IMG/VR virus record: IMGVR_UViG_2693429676_000005
DNA length: 18,864 bases
Source of the DNA: a virus
Taxonomy: Duplodnaviria; Heunggongvirae; Uroviricota; Caudoviricetes
Direction: 5' to 3' (one strand)
Both the position numbers and the translations under genes were made by a program. The notes below the pieces were generated by a model. That model searched no databases. It was not told the origin of the DNA and saw nothing but the letters and a program-made list of their open reading frames with translations. Positions 6,342 through 18,864 of this stretch are shown piece by piece; positions within the stretch are counted from its first letter, which is position 1; every line of letters starts with the position of its first letter.

Positions 6342-7085
6342 ATGACACAGACTGAATCAGCGATTCTGGCACATGCCCGGCGGTGTGCGCCTGCGGAGTC
6401 GTGCGGCTTCGTGATAAGCACGCCGGAGGGGGAGCGGTATATCCCTTGTGTGAATATTTCCGCAGAGCCGGAGGCGTATTTTCGTATCGCACCGGAAGAC
6501 TGGCTGCGGGCAGAGATGCAGGGGGAGATTGTGGCACTGGTCCACAGTCATCCCGGTGGGCTGCCCTGGCTGAGCGAGGCTGACCGGCGGTTGCAGATAA
6601 AAAGCGCACTGCCCTGGTGGTTGGTCTGCCGGGGTGACATTCACAAATTCCGCTGTGTGCCACATCTGACAGGACGGCGCTTTGAGCACGGGGTGACGGA
6701 CTGTTACACGCTGTTCCGGGATGCTTATCATCTGGCGGGGACTGAAATGCCGGATTTTCATCGCGAGGATGACTGGTGGCGCAACGGTCAGAACCTTTAC
6801 CTGGACAATATGGCGGTCACCGGCTTTTACCGGGTGCCCCTGTCCTCTGCACAGGCGGGCGATATTCTGCTGTGCTGCTTTGGTGCTTCGGTACCGAACC
6901 ATGCCGCCATTTACTGCGGCAACGGTGAGCTGCTTCACCATCTGCCTGAACAACTGAGTAAACGGGAGAGGTATTCCGAAAAATGGCAACGACGAACGCA
7001 TTCAGTCTGGCGTCACCGCCACTGGCACGCATCTGCCTTCACGGGGATTTACAACGATTTGGCCGCCGCCTCAGCCTGTATGTGA
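6342..7085 (+). CDS. K: tail tip assembly protein K (JAMM/MPN plus NlpC/P60 domains)
   Basis: The ORF-track frame is open from 6081, but the lambda-K-like N-terminus MTQTESAILAHARRCAPAESCGF starts at ATG 6342, just after the L stop. JAMM motif HSHPGGLPWLSEAD (H-x-H-x7-S-x2-D) is visible, and an NlpC/P60-like Cys/His pair (GVTDCYTLF ... NHAAIY). 3' end overlaps I by about 100 nt. Confidence 0.85.
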   Translation: MTQTESAILAHARRCAPAESCGFVISTPEGERYIPCVNISAEPEAYFRIAPEDWLRAEMQGEIVALVHSHPGGLPWLSEADRRLQIKSALPWWLVCRGDIHKFRCVPHLTGRRFEHGVTDCYTLFRDAYHLAGTEMPDFHREDDWWRNGQNLYLDNMAVTGFYRVPLSSAQAGDILLCCFGASVPNHAAIYCGNGELLHHLPEQLSKRERYSEKWQRRTHSVWRHRHWHASAFTGIYNDLAAASACM

Positions 7086-7663
7086 ACACGGCAGCGGAAG
7101 CCATTCGCGCCCTGTCGATGCAGATGCCGGGCTTTCGCCGTCAGATGAACGAAGGCTGGTACCAGATACGTATTGCCGGTTATGACACGGCACCGGAGGC
7201 GGTGTACGCCCGTCTTCACGAACAGCTGGGTGAGGGAACGGTCATCCACATTGTGCCGCGACTGGCCGGGGCCGGAAAGGGTGGACTGCAGATTGTGCTG
7301 GGGGCGGCAGCCATCGTGGGCTCTTTCTTCACTGCCGGGGCATCAATGGCGTTATGGGGTTCAGCCCTGGCAGCCGGTGGTTTTTCTGCCACCACGATGC
7401 TGTTTTCACTTGGAGCCAGCATGATTCTGGGCGGTGTGGCCCAGATGCTGGCCCCGAAGGCAAAAACACCGGATTACCGCGCAACGGATAACGGCAGACA
7501 GAACACGTACTTTTCCTCACTGGATAACATGATTGCCCAGGGGAACCCGATGCCGGTGCCTTACGGGGAAATGCTGGTTGGCTCCCGCCGTATATCCCAG
7601 GACATCAGCACCCGTGATGAAGGCGGGGGCGGAAAGGTCGTGGTTATCGGGCGGCAGGGGTAA
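6983..7663 (+). CDS. I: tail tip assembly protein I
   Basis: 226-aa ORF; ARICLHGDLQRFGRR...YQIRIAGYD...NTYFSSLDNMIAQGN...VVVIGRQG matches recalled lambda I. Confidence 0.9.
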   Translation: MATTNAFSLASPPLARICLHGDLQRFGRRLSLYVNTAAEAIRALSMQMPGFRRQMNEGWYQIRIAGYDTAPEAVYARLHEQLGEGTVIHIVPRLAGAGKGGLQIVLGAAAIVGSFFTAGASMALWGSALAAGGFSATTMLFSLGASMILGGVAQMLAPKAKTPDYRATDNGRQNTYFSSLDNMIAQGNPMPVPYGEMLVGSRRISQDISTRDEGGGGKVVVIGRQG

Positions 7664-8006: not shown

Positions 8007-10635
8007 ATGGGAAAAGGTGGCGGTAAGGCACACACGCCTCGTGAGGCGAAGGATAATCTCAAATCCACGCAGATGATGAGCGTGATTGATGCGATTGGTG
8101 AGGGACTGATAGAAGGTCCGGTGAAGGGACTGCAGAGTATCCTGGTGAACAAAACCCCGCTGACGGACACGGACGGTAATCCCGTGATACACGGTGTGAC
8201 GGCGGTCTGACGCGCCGGGGAGCAGGAGCAGACACCACCGGAAGGCTTTGAGTCCTCCGGTGCTGAAACCGGACTGGGCGTGGAAGTGACGAAGGCAAAA
8301 CCGGTGACGCGCACCATTACGTCCGCGAACATTGACCGCCTGCGGGTTACCTTCGGGGTGCAGTCACTGGTGCAGACCACGTCAAAGGGTGACCGAAACC
8401 CGACATCCGTCCGCCTGCTGATTCAGTTACAGCGTAACGGTAACTGGGTGACAGAAAAGGATGTCACCATTAACGGCAAGACCACCTCGCAGTTTCTGGC
8501 GTCGGTGATTCTGGATAATCTGCCTCCCCGTCCTTTTAACATCCGGATGGTCCGGGAGACAGCGGACAGCACCACGGACCAGCTGCAGAATAAGACGCTG
8601 TGGTCGTCATACACCGAAATCATCGATGTGAAACAGTGCTACCCGAACACGGCCATTGTGGGGCTGCAGGTGGATGCGGAGCAGTTCGGCGGCCAGCAGA
8701 TGACGGTGAACTACCATATCCGCGGTCGCATCATCCAGGTGCCGTCAAACTATGACCCGGAAAAACGCACGTACAGTGGTATCTGGGACGGTAGCCTGAA
8801 ACCGGCATACAGCAACAATCCGGCCTGGTGTCTGTGGGACATGCTGACTCACCCGCGCTACGGCATGGGAAAACGTCTGGGGGCGGCGGATGTGGACAAG
8901 TGGGCGCTGTATGCCATCGGGCAGTACTGCGACCAGACGGTCCCGGATAGTTTCGGGGAGACCGAGCCGCGGATGACCTTCAATGCGTACCTGGCACAAC
9001 AGCGTAAGGCATGGGACGTGCTCAGTGATTTCTGCTCGGCGATGCGCTGTATGCCGGTATGGAACGGCCAGACGCTGACGTTTGTTCAGGACCGCCCGTC
9101 GGATGTGGTGTGGCCGTACACCAACAGCGATGTGGTGGTGGATGATAACGGCGTGGGTTTCCGCTACAGCTTCAGTGCCCTGAAGGACCGGCACACGGCG
9201 GTGGAGGTGAATTATACCGACCCGCAGAACGGCTGGCAGACCTCCACGGAACTGGTGGAAGACCCGGAAGCCATACTGCGCTACGGACGCAACCTGCTGA
9301 AGATGGACGCGTTCGGCTGTACCAGCCGCGGTCAGGCCCACCGTGCCGGACTGTGGGTGATAAAGACCGAACTGCTGGAAACGCAGACGGTGGATTTCAC
9401 GCTCGGGTCTCAGGGGCTGCGGCACACACCCGGTGACATCATTGAAATCTGTGATAACGACTATGCCGGGACCCTGACCGGCGGACGTGTCCTGTCCATT
9501 GATGCTGCCACCCGCACTCTGACGCTGGACCGTGAAGTGACACTTCCGGAGACCGGTGCCGCCACGGTGAACCTGATTAACGGCAGCGGTAAGCCGGTGA
9601 GTGTGGACATCACCGAACACCCCGCGCCGGACCGGATACAGGTCAGTACCCTGCCTGATGGTGTGGAGACATACGGGGTGTGGGGACTCTCCCTGCCGTC
9701 ACTGCGCCGTCTCCTGTTCCGCTGTGTCTCCGTCCGGGAAAACACGGACGGCACCTTTGCCATCACGGCGGTGCAGCACGTACTGGAAAAAGAAGCCATC
9801 GTGGATAACGGTGCCCGCTTTGAGCCGCAGTCAGGTTCCCTGAACAGCGTCATCCCACCGGCAGTGCAGCACCTGACGGCCAGTATCTGGCGCAGGCGAA
9901 ATGGGACACGCCGCGGGTGGTGAAGGGTGTGCGCTTCAGTCTGCGCCTGACCAGTGGTAAGGGAACGGATGCCAGACTGGTGACCACCGCCATCACCGCA
10001 GACACGGAGCACCGTTTCAGCGGCCTGCCGCTCGGGGAATACACCCTGACGGTGCGGGCGATAAACAGCTATGGCCAGCAGGGTGAACCTGCCACCACCA
10101 CCTTCCGGATTGCCGCACCGGCAGCACCGTCGCGGATTGAGCTGACGCCGGGCTATTTTCAGATAACCGCCACGCCGCATCTTGCGGTTTATGATCCGAC
10201 GGTACAGTTTGAGTTCTGGTTCTCGGAAAAGCGGATTGCGGATATCAGGCAGGTTGAAACCACAGCACGCTATCTTGGCACGGCGCTGTACTGGATAGCC
10301 GCCAGTATCAATATCAAACCGGGCCATGATTATTACTTTTATATCCGCAGTGTGAACACCGTTGGCAAATCGGCATTCGTGGAGGCTGTTGGTCAGCCGA
10401 GTGATGATGCATCCGGTTATCTGGATTTTTTCAAAGGCGAGATAGGGAAAACCCATCTGGCTCAGGAGCTGTGGACGCAGATTGATAACGGTCAGCTTGC
10501 GCCTGACCTGGCTGAAATCAGGACGTCCATTACGGATGTCAGCAATGAAATCACGCAGACCGTCAATAAGAAACTGGAAGACCAGAGTGCGGCAATTCAG
10601 CAGATACAGAAGGTTCAGGTTGATACAAATAATAA
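8007..10635 (+). pseudogene. J: tail tip / host-specificity protein J, 5' and central part, disrupted by in-frame TGA (8208-8210) and a frameshift near 9875
   Basis: MGKGGGKAHTPREAKDNLKSTQ... matches recalled lambda J N-terminus. The same frame resumes after the TGA (RAGEQEQTPPEGFESSG...TRTITSANIDRL) and runs to 9923. Homology then continues in frame 2 from about 9875 ([20 protein letters not shown], cf. lambda GEYQVLARWDTPKVVKGV). Central FN3-like region present ([16 protein letters not shown]). Confidence 0.85.
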
Positions 10636-11078
10636 NCCCGACGGTACAGTTTGAGTTCTGGTTCTCGGAAAAGCGGATTGCGGATATCAGGCAGGTTGAA
10701 ACCAGCGCCCGCTATCTTGGCACGGCGCTGTACTGGATAGCCGCCAGTATCAATATCAAACCGGGCCATGATTATTATTTTTACGTTCGCAGTGTGAACA
10801 CCGTTGGCAAATCGGCATTCGTGGAGGCTGTCGGTCGGGCGAGCGATGATGCGGAAGGTTACTTGGATTTTTTCAAAGGAGAGATAGGGAAAACACATCT
10901 GGCTCAGGAGCTGTGGACGCAGATTGATAACGGTCAGCTTGCGCCTGACCTGGCTGAAATCAGGACGTCCATTACGGATGTCAGCAATGAAATCACGCAG
11001 ACTGTCAATAAGAAACTGAAAGACCAGAGTGCGGCAATCCAGCAGATACAGAAGGTTCAGGTTGATACAAATAATAAT
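10196..11078. repeat. two tandem, about 96%-identical copies (10196-10635 and 10638-11078) of a J internal segment, separated by a single N
   Basis: Both copies start CCGACGGTACAGTTTGAGTTCTGGTTCTCGGAAAAGCGGATTGCGGATATCAGGCAGGTTGAAACC and end GTTGATACAAATAATAA, with scattered substitutions. Probably an assembly join of two alleles. Confidence 0.8.
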
Positions 11079-11900
11079 CTGAACAGCATGTGGGCTGTGA
11101 AGCTGCAACAGATGAAGGACGGACGCCTTTATATTGCGGGTATCGGTGCCGGTATTGAGAATACGCCAGCAGGAATGCAGAGTCAGGTGCTGCTGGCGGC
11201 AGACAGGATTGCGATGATTAATCCTGCGAATGGCAACACAAAGCCGATGTTTGTTGGTCAGGGCGATCAGATATTCATGAACGACGTGTTCCTGAAACGC
11301 CTGACGGCTCCCACCATTACCAGCGGCGGTAATCCTCCGGCATTTTCCCTGACACCGGACGGAAAACTGACCGCTAAAAATGCAGATATCAGTGGCAGTG
11401 TGAATGCGAACGCCGGGACGCTCAACAATGTCACAATTAATGAGAACTGTCAGATTAAGGGGAAACTGTCAGCCAACCAGATTGAAGGCGATATAGTCAA
11501 AACAGTGGGTAAGGCTTTTCCGCGGGACTCCCGGGCACCGGAGCGGTGGCCATCAGGGACCATTACCGTCAGGATTTATGACGATCAGCCTTTTGACAGG
11601 CAAATTGTTATTCCGGCGGTGGCATTCAGCGGCGCTAAACATGAGCGGGAGAATAACGATATTTATTCGTCATGCCGCCTGATAGTACGGAAAAACGGTG
11701 CTGAAATTTATAACCGTACCGCGCTGGATAATACGCTGATTTACAGTGGTGTTATTGATATGCCAGCTGGTCGCGGCCACATGACGCTGGAGTTTTCGGT
11801 GTCAGCATGGCTGGTGAATAACTGGTATCCCACAGCAAGTATCAGCGATTTGCTGGTTGTGGTGATGAAGAAAGCCACCGCAGGCATCAGTATCAGCTGA
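10638..11900 (+). CDS. J: J 3' portion, allele A (receptor-binding C-terminus ending ...[10 protein letters not shown])
   Basis: Frame 0 from 10638 reads [21 protein letters not shown]...[54 protein letters not shown]..., which matches the recalled lambda J C-terminal region. Stop at 11898-11900. Confidence 0.7.
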
Positions 11901-11967: not shown

Positions 11968-12014
11968 ATGCGTAAAGTTTGTGCAGCCATTTTGTCCGCA
12001 GCCATCTGTCTGTC
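11968..12014 (+). other. lom: lom 5' fragment (allele A), cut off by NNNN at 12015-12018
   Basis: ATGCGTAAAGTTTGTGCAGCCATTTTGTCCGCAGCCATCTGTCTGTC encodes MRKVCAAILSAAICL, the same signal-peptide start as the complete lom at 12995, with 3 nucleotide differences. Confidence 0.6.
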
Positions 12015-12018
12015 NNNN
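12015..12018. other. scaffold join (4 N) between lom 5' fragment and J allele B
   Basis: NNNN joins two unrelated sequence contexts (lom start, then J internal sequence). Confidence 0.9.
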
Positions 12019-12924
12019 AAACTGGAAGACCAGAGTGCGGCAATTCAGCAGATACAGAAGGTTCAGGTTGATACAAATAATAACCTGAACAGCATGTGGG
12101 CTGTGAAGCTGCAGCAGATGCAGGACGGACGCCTTTATATCGCGGGTATTGGTGCCGGTATTGAGAACACCCCTGACGGCATGCAGAGTCAGGTGCTGCT
12201 GGCGGCGGACAGGATTGCGATGGTTAATCCTGCGAATGGCAACACAAAACCGATGTTTGTTGGTCAGGGCGATCAGATATTCATGAACGACGTGTTCCTG
12301 AAACGCCTGACGGCCCCCACCATTACCAGCGGTGGAAATCCATCGGCATTTTCCCTGACTCCGGACGGAAAGCTGACCGCTAAAAATGCGGATATCAGTG
12401 GCAGTGTGAATGCGAACGCCGGGACGCTCAACAATGTCACGGTAAATGAAAACTGTACGATTAAGGGCATGCTGGAGGCGACTCAGGTCAGAGGTGACTT
12501 CGTTAAAGCTGTATCCAAATCATTTCCGAAACAGGCTGGTACGTGGGGTAACACGGAAACACCAAACGGGACGGTTACAGTCACCATAAGCGATGATCAT
12601 AACTTTGACCGCCAGATTATTATTCCGCCCATTATTTTTAACGGTATAGCGTATGACGATCCGGGGAGCGGAAATAACCCAGGAGGCACGCGATACACGG
12701 GTTATGGTTTTGAAGTTCGCAAAAACGGCGTATTAATCGCATCCAGAGAAACTAAAGGTGCCATTCCCGGTAGTTACAGTGCAGTTATTGATATGCCTAG
12801 TGGTGGTGGTAGCGTCACTCTGGAGTTTAAGATTTTCCAGAAAGGCAATCAGGGGGCAGGCAATATCACCGACTGTACGGTGATTGTGACCAAAAAAGCG
12901 GCTTCCGGCATCAGTATTCGTTGA
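12019..12924 (+). CDS. J: J 3' portion, allele B (distinct receptor-binding C-terminus ending ...KKAASGISIR); likely the true continuation of J from 10635
   Basis: 12019-12083 is identical to 10571-10635, so the two pieces overlap as unitigs. Downstream reads [24 protein letters not shown]...[53 protein letters not shown]..., then a C-terminal about 140 aa unrelated to allele A. Stop at 12922-12924. Confidence 0.75.
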   Translation, partial: KLEDQSAAIQQIQKVQVDTNNNLNSMWAVKLQQMQDGRLYIAGIGAGIENTPDGMQSQVLLAADRIAMVNPANGNTKPMFVGQGDQIFMNDVFLKRLTAPTITSGGNPSAFSLTPDGKLTAKNADISGSVNANAGTLNNVTVNENCTIKGMLEATQVRGDFVKAVSKSFPKQAGTWGNTETPNGTVTVTISDDHNFDRQIIIPPIIFNGIAYDDPGSGNNPGGTRYTGYGFEVRKNGVLIASRETKGAIPGSYSAVIDMPSGGGSVTLEFKIFQKGNQGAGNITDCTVIVTKKAASGISIR

Positions 12925-13745: not shown

Positions 13746-16502
13746 ATGACAGTAAAAATTTCTGGCGTGCTTAAAGATGGCACAGGAAAACCAGTACAGA
13801 ACTGCACCATTGTGCTGAAGGCCAGACGAACCAGCAGCACGATGGTGGTGAACACGGTGGCCTCTGAAAATCCGGATGAAGCCGGACGTTACAGCATGGA
13901 TGTTGAGCATGGTCAGTACAGCGTCACCCTGCTGGTTGAAGGTTTTCCGCCTTCACATGCCGGGACCATTACCGTCTATGAAGGTTCCAGACCAGGTACG
14001 CTGAATGATTTTCTCGGTGCCATGACGGAGGATGATGTCCGACCGGAGGCACTGCGCCGCTTTGAGCAGATGGTGGAAGAGGTGTCACGTAACGCCTCCG
14101 CGGTTGCACAGAATACGGCAGCCGCGAAAAAATCAGCCAGCGAGGCGGCAACTCATGCAACCGATGCTGCAGCCTCAGCACGTGCCGCCAGCACGTCAGC
14201 CGGACAGGCCGCGTCGTCGGCTCAGTCAGCGTCTTCCAGCGCAGGAACGGCATCGACAAAGGCCCGTGAAGCAGCAAAAAGTGCTGCTGCAGAGTCATCA
14301 AAAAGCGCGGCAGCTACCAGCGCCAGTGCCGCGAAAACGTCAGAAACGAATGCCGCAGCATCACAAAAATCGGCAGCCACTTCTGCATCCACAGCGACCA
14401 CGAAGGCGTCAGAAGCTGCCACCTCGGCACGGGGTGCGGCGGCCTCAAAAGAGGCAGCGAAATCTTCAGAAACGAATGCATCATCGAGTGCCAGTAGTGC
14501 AGCTTCCTCGGCAACGGCGGCAGGAAATTCCGCGAAGGCGGCAAAAACGTCCGAGACGAACGCTAAGTCTTCTGAAACAGCAGCGGGACAGAGCGCCTCA
14601 GCTGCGGCAGGTTCAAAAACAGCGGCTGCATTATCTGCCAGTGCCGCGTCAACAAGTGCCGGGCAGGCCTCAGCCAGTGCCACCGCCGCCGGAAAATCGG
14701 CAGAAAGCGCCGCATCATCCGCTTCAACAGCCACAACGAAGGCTGGCAAAGCCACTGAGCAAGCCACTGCAGCAGCGAGGTCTGCTTCTGCAGCAAAAAC
14801 CTCTGAAACAAATGCAAAGACTTCAGCAGACAATGCTGCTTCCTCTAAGGCAGCAGCCGCATCGTCAGCCAGTTCAGCGGCGTCATCGGCATCATCTGCG
14901 TCTGCTTCAAAAGATGAGGCGACCAGACAAGCGTCAGCAGCGAAAGGTAGTGCCACGACAGCAACAACGAAAGCATCAGAGGCGGCAGGCAGTGCGACGG
15001 CTGCATCTCAGAGCAAAGTTGCTGCTGAATCCGCGGCAACGCGCGCCGAGACAGCAGCAAAACGGGCAGAGGATATTGCATCCGCCGTGGCGCTTGAGGA
15101 TGCGAGCACGACGAAAAAGGGGATAGTACAGCTCAGCAGTGCGACCAACAGCACTTCCGAGTCACTGGCGGCAACGCCAAAAGCGGTTAAGGCGGTAATG
15201 GGTGAAACGAACAAGAAAGCGCCCTTAAATAGTCCTGCACTGACCGGAACGCCAACAACACCAACTGCGCGACAGGGAACGAATAATACCCAAATCGCAA
15301 GCACGGCTTTCGTTATGGCTGCGATTGCCGCCCTTGTAGATTCGTCACCTGATGCACTGAACACGCTGAACGAGCTGGCTGCGGCGCTGGGCAACGACCC
15401 GAATTTTGCGACCACCATGACTAACGCGCTTGCGGGTAAGCAACCGAAAGATGCCACCCTGACGGCGCTGGCCGGACTTACTACTGCGGCAGGCAAGTTT
15501 CCGTATTTTACGGGGAATGATGTCGCCAGCCTGGCAACCCTGACAAAAGTCGGGCGGGATATTCTTGCGAAATCGACCGTTGCTGCCGTTATCGAATACC
15601 TCGGTTTACAGGAAACGGTAAACAAGGCTGGTAACGCCGTTCAGCGTTCCGGCGATAAAATGACCGGAGAACTGAAAATTGGCACGGTGAATGCGCTGCG
15701 AATTTTCAATGATACCTTCGGTCTAATTTTCCGTCGTTCAGAAGATTTTCTTCATTTCATTCCGACGGCTGAAGGACAAGGCGAAAACGGTAATATCGGC
15801 CCATTAAGGCCATTCGCTATAAATCTGAGAACAGGTGCTATATCTGTCAGCCACGGGGCCAAAATTAAAGGAGGTCTAGCTATTGGAGCTACTGATAACG
15901 CACTGGGTGAAAACTCCATTGTTCTGGGAGATAACGACACCGGATTTAGGCAAGATGGAGATGGTATTATTAGCTTCTATTCAAATGGTTCGCGCATCGG
16001 ACATATTGATGAGTTAGGATTACATCTTTATAAAGATATTGAATCTAATGGCAGCAATTTTAGATTAAAAAGTAATTACCGCCACCACATTACATTCGCC
16101 AACGAAGACGGAAGAATTCGTATGTTTTTGTGGAAAGATAACGGTGGTGATGGTGTTCATATTAATAACGGTTCAGATGGTGGTGGTGATTTCATTTTTA
16201 AAACAGATGGGGGATTTGCGCTGGGAAGTGGTGCGCAAGTTGCGTCTAGTGGCGATATTTATGGTTCAGTGTGGGAAAACAACTGGTTAAGCACATGGCT
16301 GCATAATCATGTCGTTCGGGATATTCGTCTTGGCAGCATTGAATATAAAAACGTATGGCGCGACTACGGCTTTGGCGATGCGTCAGGTTATGTTTTAACA
16401 GCCGCAATTAACAGCAATGCGGATGATATTGTCGACACTGTTGCCAGAAGGCCAATTCAGAAATTGATTGGGGGAATATGGTACAACGTGGGGAGTGTTT
16501 AA
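13746..16502 (+). CDS. stf: side tail fibre protein Stf (constant N-terminal part plus invertible variable C-terminal part)
   Basis: 918-aa ORF. N-terminus [28 protein letters not shown]...[33 protein letters not shown] is near-identical to recalled lambda Stf, followed by a long Ala/Ser/Thr-rich repetitive shaft (KTSETNA repeats). The region after the crossover site at 15589-15614 is the exchangeable tip. Confidence 0.9.
15589..15614. other. left crossover site for invertase (gix/pix/hix-like, 26 bp), inside stf
   Basis: TTATCGAATACC TC GGTTTACAGGAA. The reverse complement of the right site (18505-18530) is TTATCTAAAACC TC GGTTTACGAGAA, giving 21/26 identity in inverted orientation, two 12-bp half-sites around a 2-bp core. 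Matches the recalled gix pattern. Confidence 0.7.
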
Positions 16503-16503
16503 G

Positions 16504-17031
16504 ATGATGCACCTGAAAAATATTAAGGCCGGGAATCCGAAAACACCGGAACAATACCAGCTAACTAAAAAAGCGGGCGTGGTATGGCTCTTTTGCGAAG
16601 ATGGCAAAAACTGGTATGAGGAACAAAAGAATTTTCAGCCAGACACCATAAAAATTGCTTACGATGAGAACAACATCATCGTTGCTGTCAGTAAAGACGT
16701 TTCAACTATTAATCCTGAAGGGCTAAGCATAGTTGAAGTTCCTGATATTACGGCAAATCGTCACGCAGACAATAACGGAAAATGGATGTTTCTGGATGGT
16801 AAAGTAGTAAAGAGGGAATATACAGAACAGGAACTGCAACAACAGGCCGAATCACAAAAGGCCGCATTGCTTTCCGAAGCTGAATCAGTCATCCAGCCGC
16901 TGGAACGCGCTGTCAGGCTGAATATGGCAACAGACGAGGAACGCACACGACTGGAAGCATGGGAACGCTACAGTGTTCTGGTCAGCCGTGTGGATACGGC
17001 AAATCCTGAATGGCCACAAAAGCCTGAATAA
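16504..17031 (+). CDS. tfa: tail fibre assembly chaperone Tfa (partner of + orientation fibre tip)
   Basis: Starts 1 nt after the stf stop: [41 protein letters not shown]... This is a typical Tfa N-terminus and is paralogous to the inverted copy at 17060-17593. Confidence 0.88.
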
Positions 17032-17036
17032 AAATT

Positions 17037-17056
17037 AAGGCCCGATAGCGGGCCTT
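17037..17056. terminator. hairpin between convergent tfa genes (terminator, U-tract on - strand)
   Basis: AAGGCCCG / atag / CGGGCCTT. On the - strand it is followed by AATTTTTATT. Confidence 0.6.
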
Positions 17057-17059
17057 CTC

Positions 17060-17593
17060 TCATTCTGGTTGTTCGGGAAACGTTACTGGCAGGCTGGAGG
17101 TGTCTGTGGATTCAACCTTCTGCGCATAGAGCATCCACTCGGTTAATTTTTGTTTATTCTCATCGGAAATGATGCCCAGCTGTAGCTGAGAGTCCCACAG
17201 CTGGGTTTTATCCCTGACGAGCTGCAGCAGGCTCTGCTTTTCATTTTCCGCTTGTTGCCTTTGCTCTTCCTCGGTATAAGTTCGCTTTATCACCGCACCA
17301 TCTTTGAACATCCAGTTGCCCGAAATATCAGCCCGGCGATTTGCTGTAATATCAGGCAACTCAACGACACTTAAACCTTCTGGATTAATTGCTGATACAT
17401 CCTTGTCTATAGCAATAATTATTCCCTCAACTGTGTAAGCCAGTTTTATTGTATCCTCCTGAAAGTTTTTTAATTCCTCATGCCAATTTTTTCCATCTTC
17501 GGACCATAACCAGATAACATCAAAATTCTTTGTTAGCTGGTATTGTTCAACGGTTTTTGGATTACCTGCGACAATGTTTTTTAAATGCTGCAT
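17060..17593 (-). CDS. tfa: tail fibre assembly chaperone Tfa' (alternative, inside invertible segment)
   Basis: 177-aa [43 protein letters not shown]..., with a conserved N-terminal about 95 aa shared with the + strand Tfa and a different C-terminus. Confidence 0.88.
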
Positions 17594-17595
17594 GA

Positions 17596-18522
17596 TTATA
17601 CCTGCGATACGTTATACCATGTTCCGTTAATTAACTTTTGTATTGGTCTGAATACTGCCGGATCATCACCATCGACTTCACCGATAATACCAAGCCCCGT
17701 GATTACATGGCCTGATTTTTCATACATCACGCCTTTCTTCATGGTCTAAACAACTCGTGTGCCAAGTCTGACATCTCTCACATAGCGGGAATCAAAGTTA
17801 CCGTAATCCGAGGGATTAACACGTCCCGTAATATTTATGGTTTTATTACTTTGAATGCTTCCGGAGACAAAGCGCATAACATGGACGTTATTAGCATAAA
17901 CATCCAGATTACCATCGCCTTTTTGTTTAAAGCCCGTGTCATTATCACCCAATACAATCGAATTACCGCCAAGAGCACTGGATGTTCCGATACCCAGTGC
18001 ACCATTCAGTTGACCACCAGATAACGGCAGTGCACCAACATCTCCTGCTGAAGGTTTTCTGGTGGTGTAAAATTCGGACCAGTCGGCTTCAAAACCATAA
18101 CCATCACGGGCTGAACGATAAAAAATACCGCCATTTTTATAATTAATCCGAAACTGAGCTGCAGGACAACTTCCTTCTCCCATATAAAAATGAATAATTA
18201 ACGTTGATGCACCACTAATAGTTGCGTTATAGGCTCCGCTACTCCAGTTCCATCCAACTGCTTTATCATTCGCAACGGTGCTTCCTGTTTTCCCTAAGGC
18301 AAACGCACCAACATGACTTGCTTTTAATGTGATATCGGAGGAACCATCAAAAGCCACATTGCTTATTTTCCTGGCAGTTTTTAATTTTGCAGCTGTAGAA
18401 GCATTGCCGGATAGTTCACCAGAAAGGCCACCGCTGAATGTTTGTCGATTAGTCCAGGTATTCGCTGTACTGAGTAACGGTATTTTCTCCCCGCTTGTGC
18501 CGAGTTCTCGTAAACCGAGGTT
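17596..18522 (-). pseudogene. stf: alternative tail fibre variable C-terminus (Sv'), no own start codon, interrupted by in-frame TAG at 17746-17748
   Basis: - strand frame is open from just inside the right crossover site (NLGLRELGTSGEKIPLLSTANTWTNRQTF...) with no ATG. Contains [21 protein letters not shown], paralogous to Stf [21 protein letters not shown]. After the TAG the same frame continues for 48 codons ending [18 protein letters not shown], paralogous to the Stf C-terminus [18 protein letters not shown]. Confidence 0.75.
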
Positions 18523-18530
18523 TTAGATAA
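18505..18530. other. right crossover site for invertase (gix/pix-like, 26 bp)
   Basis: TTCTCGTAAACC GA GGTTTTAGATAA, close to the recalled Mu gix sequence TTCCTGTAAACCGAGGTTTTGGATAA. Lies directly upstream of the invertase gene, as in Mu, P1 and e14. Confidence 0.75.
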
Positions 18531-18584
18531 TGGCGGTTTCTGGCCTGCATGGCATGATTTGTGCTTTTGGACGGGAGATTCAGC

Positions 18585-18864
18585 GTGCTGATTGGCTATG
18601 TAAGGGTATCAACAAATGACCAGAATACAGACCTGCAACGAAACGCTCTTGTTTGTGCAGGATATGAACAAATATTTGAAGATAAATTAAGCGGAACAAG
18701 GACAGGCCGACCTGGATTAAAACGTGCTTTAAAGCGCCTTCAAAAAGGTGACGCACTGGTTGTCTGAAAACTGGACTGACTGGGTCACTGTATGCGGCAT
18801 CTTGTCGTGCTGGTGGTGGAAGCCTAGAAAAAGTATCGGGTGTTGCTGAACCGTGTTGATACAT
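18585..18864 (+). pseudogene. pin: Pin/Gin/Hin-family serine DNA invertase, 5' part; in-frame stops after codon 60; 3' end beyond window
   Basis: From GTG 18585: (M)LIGYVRVSTNDQNTDLQRNALVCAGYEQIFEDKLSGTRTGRPGLKRALKRLQKGDALVV, near-identical to recalled Pin/Gin N-termini including the catalytic Ser in VRVSTNDQ. TGA then replaces the conserved W of VVWKLDRLGR (18765-18767), with a second TGA (18777-18779) and a TAG (18825-18827) in the same frame. Confidence 0.8.

Follow-up and report, generated by a model that had tools for sequence, protein, structure and literature searches.

At its right end, the DNA analysed here raises the question of what an invertase gene has become when its first 60 codons are almost those of phage Mu gin and the codons that follow fill with in-frame stops. 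The window, by which we mean the whole stretch of 18,864 nucleotides from a virus of the Caudoviricetes (IMG/VR record IMGVR_UViG_2693429676_000005), ends within this gene, at positions 18585-18864, beside a tail-fibre cassette of the kind that such invertases turn over. A preliminary description made from the sequence alone had offered a recombination or deletion junction, a low-quality contig end, or a real inactivation that locks the cassette in one orientation. We compared the locus with phage records and complete Escherichia coli genomes to decide between these readings, and to ask how the cassette could still be switched.

The invertase reading frame at the end of the window

Translation of the plus strand from the GTG start codon at 18585 gave 60 open codons of a Gin-type catalytic domain (18585-18764; VLIGYVRVSTNDQNTDLQRNALVCAGYEQIFEDKLSGTRTGRPGLKRALKRLQKGDALVV), beginning with VLIGYVRVSTNDQ and ending with GDALVV. 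The frame is then interrupted by TGA at codon 61 (18765-18767), TGA at codon 65 (18777-18779) and TAG at codon 81 (18825-18827), confirming the open stretch and the three stops reported earlier. Residues 1-60 of this stump matched the Pfam Resolvase family (PF00239) with E=2.9e-15, and it is therefore no chance open reading frame. The active-site serine motif GYVRVSTNDQ, which includes Ser10 and agrees with the invertase-family pattern YVRVST-DQ, is present. The N-terminal part had been called perfectly conserved; near-identity was indeed found, with 57 of 60 residues shared with Mu Gin, but the stump-specific differences C27Y, D41G and T57A show that conservation is not perfect. Identity to PinE of e14 was about 45 of 60 residues. 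Four of the six nucleotide changes specific to the stump lineage are replacement or nonsense changes, which suggests that the 5' part of the stump is likewise drifting as a pseudogene.

The sequence VV*KLD*LGH (asterisks denote stops) had been read correctly as the homologue of the conserved VVWKLDRLGR motif. The catalytic domain is not complete through the DRLGR arginines and the E-helix, with R65 replaced by a stop and R68 by His, and homology to invertases is gone past about codon 77. In RefSeq, the stump and the stretch beyond it are labelled 'recombinase family protein, missing C-terminus' and then 'tail fiber assembly protein, missing N-terminus'. An antisense open reading frame of 94 codons starting with ATG crosses the whole stump (18580-18864, minus strand); it is unannotated in the complete genomes inspected, and nothing supports its being a real gene.

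Recurrence of the junction in complete genomes

We searched complete E. coli genomes with the last 415 bases of the window and found them again at 99.3-99.5% identity. Coverage of the query reached 80% or more in 531 complete genomes, and 450 complete-genome records, originating from many laboratories and sequencing platforms, matched it at 99% identity or above. Carriers of the junction include the ST131 strains EC958 and JJ1886 and the historic strain NCTC86, and all three stops are present in EC958, JJ1886, 4/0 and 4/1-1. That errors of sequencing or assembly at a low-quality contig end produced the stops and the divergence, a view that could draw on the contact of the feature with the window end and on odd duplications in the J gene elsewhere in the window, is hardly credible against this recurrence, which extends to the PacBio-finished genome of EC958, whose authors discussed the truncation (PMC4134206).

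The stump locus in the complete genomes lies in a lambdoid prophage adjoining an ompW fragment and trpA. Since coverage of the whole window stays at or below 88% in every complete genome, the source of the window appears to be a related but distinct mosaic prophage. The junction between the stump and the tail-fibre assembly (tfa) sequence was absent from the 50,697 phage records searched.

Three-part origin of the stump

Nucleotide alignments divided the region into three parts. The first (18450-18775) takes in gixR, the leader and about the first 63 codons, and shows 96% identity to the invertase region of the P2-like Xuanwuvirus phages Shae_phiSM and P884B11, and 92-95% identity to gin of Mu, D108 and SfMu. 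This identity collapses after 18775, so that the sharp switch noticed earlier is genuine.

The second part is a Pin(e14)-type segment (18771-18816, plus strand), recognised by nucleotide comparison with pinE and with an intact Shigella pin allele. The change from Gin-like to Pin-like sequence falls near 18771-18776, and the 27 bases from 18790 to 18816 are identical to K-12 pinE. Where the intact Shigella flexneri pin allele reads GAC CGA CTA GGG CGC AGT, the window has GAC TGA CTG GGT CAC TGT, differing by CGA to TGA at 18777-18779 and by R68H and S69C; relative to that allele, the TGA at 18777 is thus best read as a CGA to TGA transition. PinR and PinQ of K-12 were also considered as kin of the Pin-like part and rejected, with about 44% protein identity and DNA that is unalignable here.

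The third part is the 3' end of a lambdoid tfa gene. Comparison with pinE and with the tfa remnant of phage Ayreon placed the fusion point, which is in frame, inside a short repeat, TGGTGGTGGA (18814-18821, plus strand), and BLAST matches to tfa begin at 18811-18814. From 18817 to 18864 (plus strand), the identity to Ayreon and lambda and the RefSeq label identify the last ~30 codons of tfa, and not a full-length Tfa (Caudo_TAP) coding sequence of about 190 amino acids. The remnant matches Ayreon at 97% identity over 188 bases, which run on beyond the stop codon of tfa, and lambda tfa at 87%. It extends 47 bases past the window end in complete genomes, where the sequence expected beyond 18864 is CAACTGCACCTGATATTGAGTGGCC...TAA, followed by a methyltransferase gene on the opposite strand. 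The TAG at 18825-18827 is a TGG to TAG change within the tfa remnant, and the earlier reading of this codon and of the 'general divergence' around it as decayed invertase was mistaken.

A likeness between the two genes probably explains that impression, as 'NRVDTST' in tfa resembles 'DSIDTST' in the invertases, and tblastn carries an alignment of Gin residues 1-96 over 18585-18863. The same alignment is what could be said for a full-length invertase that is decaying in place by point mutation, with its remainder lying just past the window. We consider this very improbable: beyond 18817 the alignment needs a 9-nt gap and reaches roughly 45-60% nucleotide identity to invertases, against the 97% identity of the same stretch to the tfa remnant, and the complete genomes hold no invertase residues beyond about 99 downstream.

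The nucleotide-level alignment to pin and gin that had been suggested for separating point mutations from a breakpoint revealed both. Breakpoints were found at the Gin-to-Pin switch and at the Pin/tfa fusion, bearing out the idea of a recombination or deletion junction, and the stops are point mutations. Heavier decay after 18775 was considered and set aside, since divergence in the Pin-like part (5/46) and in the Gin-like part (9/186) did not differ significantly (Fisher p=0.16). Because the divergence of the Pin-like part is not significantly above that of the Gin-like part, the Gin/Pin mosaic may predate the truncation rather than mark a later event.

The missing C-terminal half

We then looked for the rest of the gene in complete genomes. 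In the 12-kb loci of EC958, JJ1886 and NCTC86, tblastn detected no Gin or Pin residues beyond 99, and the C-terminal half of the invertase was not found within 6 kb downstream in these three genomes. The C-terminal helix-turn-helix DNA-binding domain likewise had no match in the window or in those 6-kb stretches. Downstream of the stump, complete genomes carry the tfa stop codon, a small open reading frame and an opposite-strand SAM-dependent methyltransferase instead, which rules out there a full-length gene running past the window. As no C-terminal half is present within 6 kb downstream in the complete genomes checked, the inactivation is real and irreversible, and neither readthrough nor resequencing would rescue the truncation. 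Resequencing that returned TGG and CGA and an intact frame had been proposed as the outcome that would overturn the inactivation; this does not apply to a gene whose remainder is absent.

In EC958, the tfa 3' remnant and the DNA downstream of it occur as tandem copies (locus L001, 6365-7561; copies at 6365-6552 and 7373-7561). These flank the opposite-strand class I SAM-dependent methyltransferase, a gene that phage Ayreon does not have and that seems to have been inserted as cargo at the boundary of the module.

Age of the fusion

Strain CUPF12 carries the same three-part junction in a different, degraded prophage adjoining bioA/ybhB. Codons 61 and 81 of its stump are still TGG, and only the codon-65 TGA is common to CUPF12 and the window. 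Since the CUPF12 copy keeps TGG at both positions, the stops at codons 61 and 81 appear to be recent and lineage-specific, with the TGA in the Trp61 codon (plus strand) a late TGG to TGA point mutation, and the fusion and the codon-65 stop appear to be older. Phage Ayreon has the same tfa 3' remnant right after an unrelated side-tail-fibre gene, and the exchange of fibre cassettes seems to have left the remnant as a conserved right-hand module boundary of lambdoid phages.

The CUPF12 cassette (locus L006, 4741-5147) contains an IS3 element, its stump is annotated as a 64-aa protein, and its right crossover site has a 'flipped' inner half-site. A scan of species-representative genomes with a 25-mer spanning the Pin-like part returned six loci only (E. 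coli, Shigella and one probably contaminated metagenome-assembled genome), too few for a cross-genus history. A 2.5-kb contig assigned to a 'Bacillota bacterium' metagenome-assembled genome (JAEWTL010000008.1; locus L014, 1-2500) bears an E. coli stump/tfa junction of the CUPF12 type, most likely through contamination or mis-binning.

The tail-fibre cassette

The expressed side tail-fibre gene of the window (13746-16502, plus strand; 918 aa; Pfam phage_tail_N with E=3.6e-69, and gp37_trimer) joins a lambdoid N-terminal domain and a constant part to a variable C-terminus that lies in the invertible segment. Positions 15097-15609 (plus strand) form the left end of a block homologous to P2-like tail-fibre DNA (Xuanwuvirus and EC958 Phi1), with 95.7% identity to EC958 Phi1, and 15212-15640 is 97.2% identical to Shae_phiSM. 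These matches point to an imported P2-like switch module whose left boundary would lie near 15097.

An inverted repeat and a pattern scan identified two gix-like 26-bp crossover sites, on the left TTATCGAATACC TC GGTTTACAGGAA (15589-15614; Phi4_5prime in Table 3 of PMC4134206) and on the right TTCTCGTAAACC GA GGTTTTAGATAA (18505-18530; Phi4_3prime, PMC4134206), both given on the plus strand. The sites are inverted and match in their central GA/TC. As judged from open reading frames and Pfam matches, the constant 5' part of the fibre gene lies outside the segment, and mirrored 3' parts with their assembly genes lie inside. These are the assembly gene of the current orientation (16504-17031, plus strand; Caudo_TAP, E=7.9e-37), its mirror image for the alternative orientation (17060-17593, minus strand; Caudo_TAP, E=4.8e-34), and a promoterless, Sv'-like alternative fibre C-terminus (17596-18516, minus strand), recognised by its translation, its NCTC86 homologue and a gp37_C match. 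Beside the segment stands the 60-codon stump in place of a functional invertase, and no other invertase was found within the 18.9-kb window.

The silent alternative tip of the window contains a nonsense codon (17752-17754, minus strand), which is Gln in NCTC86 and lies 49 codons before the normal end, so that after inversion the window's host would make a truncated fibre. The J gene of the window carries a tandem duplication (10196-11077), with copies at 10196-10635 and 10638-11077 that are 95% identical and repeat with a 442-nt period. The duplication causes a frameshift and, with another change of frame near 9920, divides J into three open reading frames (8280-9923, 9917-10654 and 10482-11900). 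In strain WS3294A, the sequence is present once and J is intact at 3474 nt. Either genuine recombination or an expansion during assembly could have produced the duplication. Between J and lom, an extra open reading frame (11968-12924) encodes a second J C-terminus with the Phage_Tail_Tip and Ig_GpJ_C receptor-binding domain; 12019-12467 is 93% identical to 11013-11461, and the frame looks like an alternative receptor-binding module left over from J-tip exchange. Because of the nonsense codon in the alternative tip, the frame-shifting duplication and the extra C-terminal copy of J, the prophage copy in the window is probably defective. With the alternative tip truncated and J disrupted, flipping may have no phenotypic consequence in this host.

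Inversion in sibling genomes

A flipped right junction was built in silico from the EC958 sequence and searched in complete genomes. It was found in 143 of them at 80% query coverage or above, as against 239 for the unflipped junction, and the flipped matches listed, which include JJ1886, JJ1887 and MNCRE44, were all 100% identical over 800 nt. Inversion was seen directly between the near-identical Swedish ST131 isolates 4/1-1 and 4/0, in which flanks of 2977 and 6158 nt are 100% identical and the 3.1 kb between the gix sites is inverted, with a full-length fibre reading frame in each orientation (968 and 941 aa). We used this pair in place of NCTC86 and EC958, which were rejected as a simple orientation pair because NCTC86 has similar tips at both ends and a hybrid left site. 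In NCTC86 (locus L002, 3088-6081), related fibre tips at the two ends are 94% and 98.6% identical to the right half of the window, and the inner half-site of the left crossover site is the one that usually belongs to the right site; the segment seems to bear the signature of a past inversion followed by recombination or conversion.

Both orientations therefore occur in nature, as judged from sibling genomes, and in these siblings the cassette is not locked but flips. The genomes of both orientations all carry the same dead stump, which argues for inversion in trans. Forde et al. (2014; PMC4134206) had reached this conclusion for prophage Phi4 of EC958, reporting a severely truncated invertase and inversion that must be in trans. 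Their 3106-bp invertible segment has the same crossover sites, its coordinates map onto the stump locus, and PacBio contigs showed both Phi4 orientations within one EC958 culture (PMC4134206). EC958 encodes intact Gin-family invertases in Phi1 (199 aa, the same protein as in Shae_phiSM) and Phi2 (190 aa), and the ability of Pin, Fin, Hin and Gin to act across systems is established (see the summary in PMC12529663). Which prophage enzyme acts in trans, and whether the window's host has such an enzyme, are matters of inference.

The earlier suggestion that inactivation would lock the cassette unless another invertase acted in trans thus held for the inactivation, and failed for the locking in sibling genomes. 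A cassette frozen in the orientation of the window for want of a cis invertase would fit the lack of any invertase in the window, and the nonsense codon in the alternative tip is what relaxed selection on switching could leave behind. We nevertheless think it unlikely, as the gix sites are identical to those of EC958, the enhancer region differs from it at one base (18632), and inversion occurs both within the EC958 culture and between near-identical isolates. Also against it, approximately 79% of complete E. coli genomes (4268/5426) have at least one match to a stump-spanning query, although this query also holds fibre-gene and tfa sequence and not every match need be an invertase gene.

The putative Fis enhancer

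The Hin enhancer is a 65-bp element with Fis sites at each end, located about 100 bp from hix (PMC3798978), and the title of Kahmann et al. (1985) places the Mu enhancer within the invertase gene. By position and homology, a Fis-dependent recombinational enhancer is predicted at 18606-18669 of the window. It would comprise the two G-N13-C cores GTATCAACAAATGAC and GTGCAGGATATGAAC, with 49 bp from centre to centre and 95.5 bp between the centre of the first core and that of gixR. Over 18585-18663, Mu gin, Shae_phiSM, EC958 Phi1 and the window have the same sequence. We infer that the stump keeps the enhancer in cis.

This raises the possibility that the stump is kept by selection for gixR and the Fis enhancer, with the fibre switch dependent on a co-resident invertase. 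What is retained amounts to exactly gixR and the place where the enhancer is expected, none of the stump-specific substitutions lies in 18585-18663 against 6 in 18664-18770, and the stump has survived in two prophage lineages, at two places in the chromosome. However, the first 79 nt are invariant in intact genes too, and the conservation may be inherited and recent, for the stump lineages are 98-99% identical and have had little time to decay. The sample is also tiny, with about three independent stump sequences, and the second putative Fis core has itself been hit by one substitution (18664). Selection on the stump is thus a possible explanation that we would not favour.

Proposed origin of the locus

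Taken together, the results lead us to propose, with a probability of about 85%, that the locus is a fossil invertase stump fused to tfa, and that its cassette is flipped by an invertase acting in trans. In this account, 18585-18864 would be a fossil and not a gene. A P2-like host-range switch module of the Xuanwuvirus type, made up of the constant part of a fibre, two gix sites, two mirrored pairs of tip and assembly genes and the start of an invertase, would have come to lie inside the side-tail-fibre region of a lambdoid prophage. Illegitimate recombination or a deletion at the short repeat would have cut the invertase at about codon 77 and fused it in frame with the ~30 codons at the 3' end of a lambdoid tfa. 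The stump itself is a mosaic, Gin-like to about 18775 and then Pin-like to 18816. The three stops would be later neutral point mutations, of which that at 18777 is common to the second-site copy and those at 18765 and 18825 are lineage-specific.

Of this account, the make-up of the locus, the spread of the junction, the lack of the rest of the gene in the complete genomes checked, and inversion between near-identical stump-bearing genomes are direct findings. The stump makes no invertase, but it keeps both 26-bp sites and, presumably, the Fis enhancer, which Gin-family genes contain within their first ~90 bp. Because the crossover sites and the putative enhancer are kept in cis, a Gin/Pin-family invertase of a co-resident prophage could still flip the 2.9-kb cassette. 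We find it doubtful, though worth stating, that the stump is more specifically a retained cis piece (gixR and Fis enhancer) that makes the lambdoid fibre cassette a client of the invertase of a co-resident P2-like prophage. If that were true, the host range of one prophage, or a fibre product of it that protects the host, would be under the control of another.

Comparison with known systems

The stump adds one more copy to a case already published (Forde et al., 2014; PMC4134206) and is in that sense known. EC958 Phi4 resembles the window in its identical 26-bp sites, its stump/tfa junction (99.3% identity), the 60-codon length and three stops of the stump, and its lambdoid prophage, which in EC958 adjoins ompW/trpA. 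It differs in that the cassette interior of the window (15946-17762) is a different allele, and in that the window has the nonsense codon in the alternative tip and the J duplications. To the published account we add the three-part origin of the stump, the order of its stops, a second chromosomal site, population counts of both orientations, and the coincidence of the retained piece with the expected enhancer position. For annotation, the stump should be labelled as a pseudogene fragment fused to a tfa remnant and not as a decaying full-length invertase, and the orientation of the neighbouring cassette should not be assumed to be fixed; long-read assemblies of such strains can give 'spurious' alternative contigs (PMC4134206). 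Beyond correct annotation, the finding is of little importance.

The closest module donors are the P2-like Xuanwuvirus-type prophages Shae_phiSM, P884B11 and EC958 Phi1, with 96% identity over 18450-18775 and 95.7-97% over the constant part of the fibre (15097-15640). Unlike in the window, their invertase is complete (199 aa), and tail genes come after it in place of a tfa remnant. The G segment of phage Mu shares with the window a length of 3 kb between inverted 26-bp gix sites, mirrored S/U-type fibre and assembly genes, and an invertase start about 65 bp outside gixR, with 92.9% identity over 18510-18775. However, Mu gin is intact (193 aa) and acts in cis, whereas the window element belongs to a lambdoid siphovirus-type prophage in which only codons 1-60 are open.

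The P segment of e14 is likewise a fibre cassette inverted by serine invertases encoded elsewhere in the chromosome, as it is turned over also by PinQ and PinR of other cryptic prophages (PMC12529663). In contrast to the window, whose cassette would be wholly dependent on supply in trans, e14 retains a functional PinE. The dependence of one prophage on the invertase of another, as considered above for the lambdoid cassette, would resemble PinQ driving e14 inversion for phage defence.
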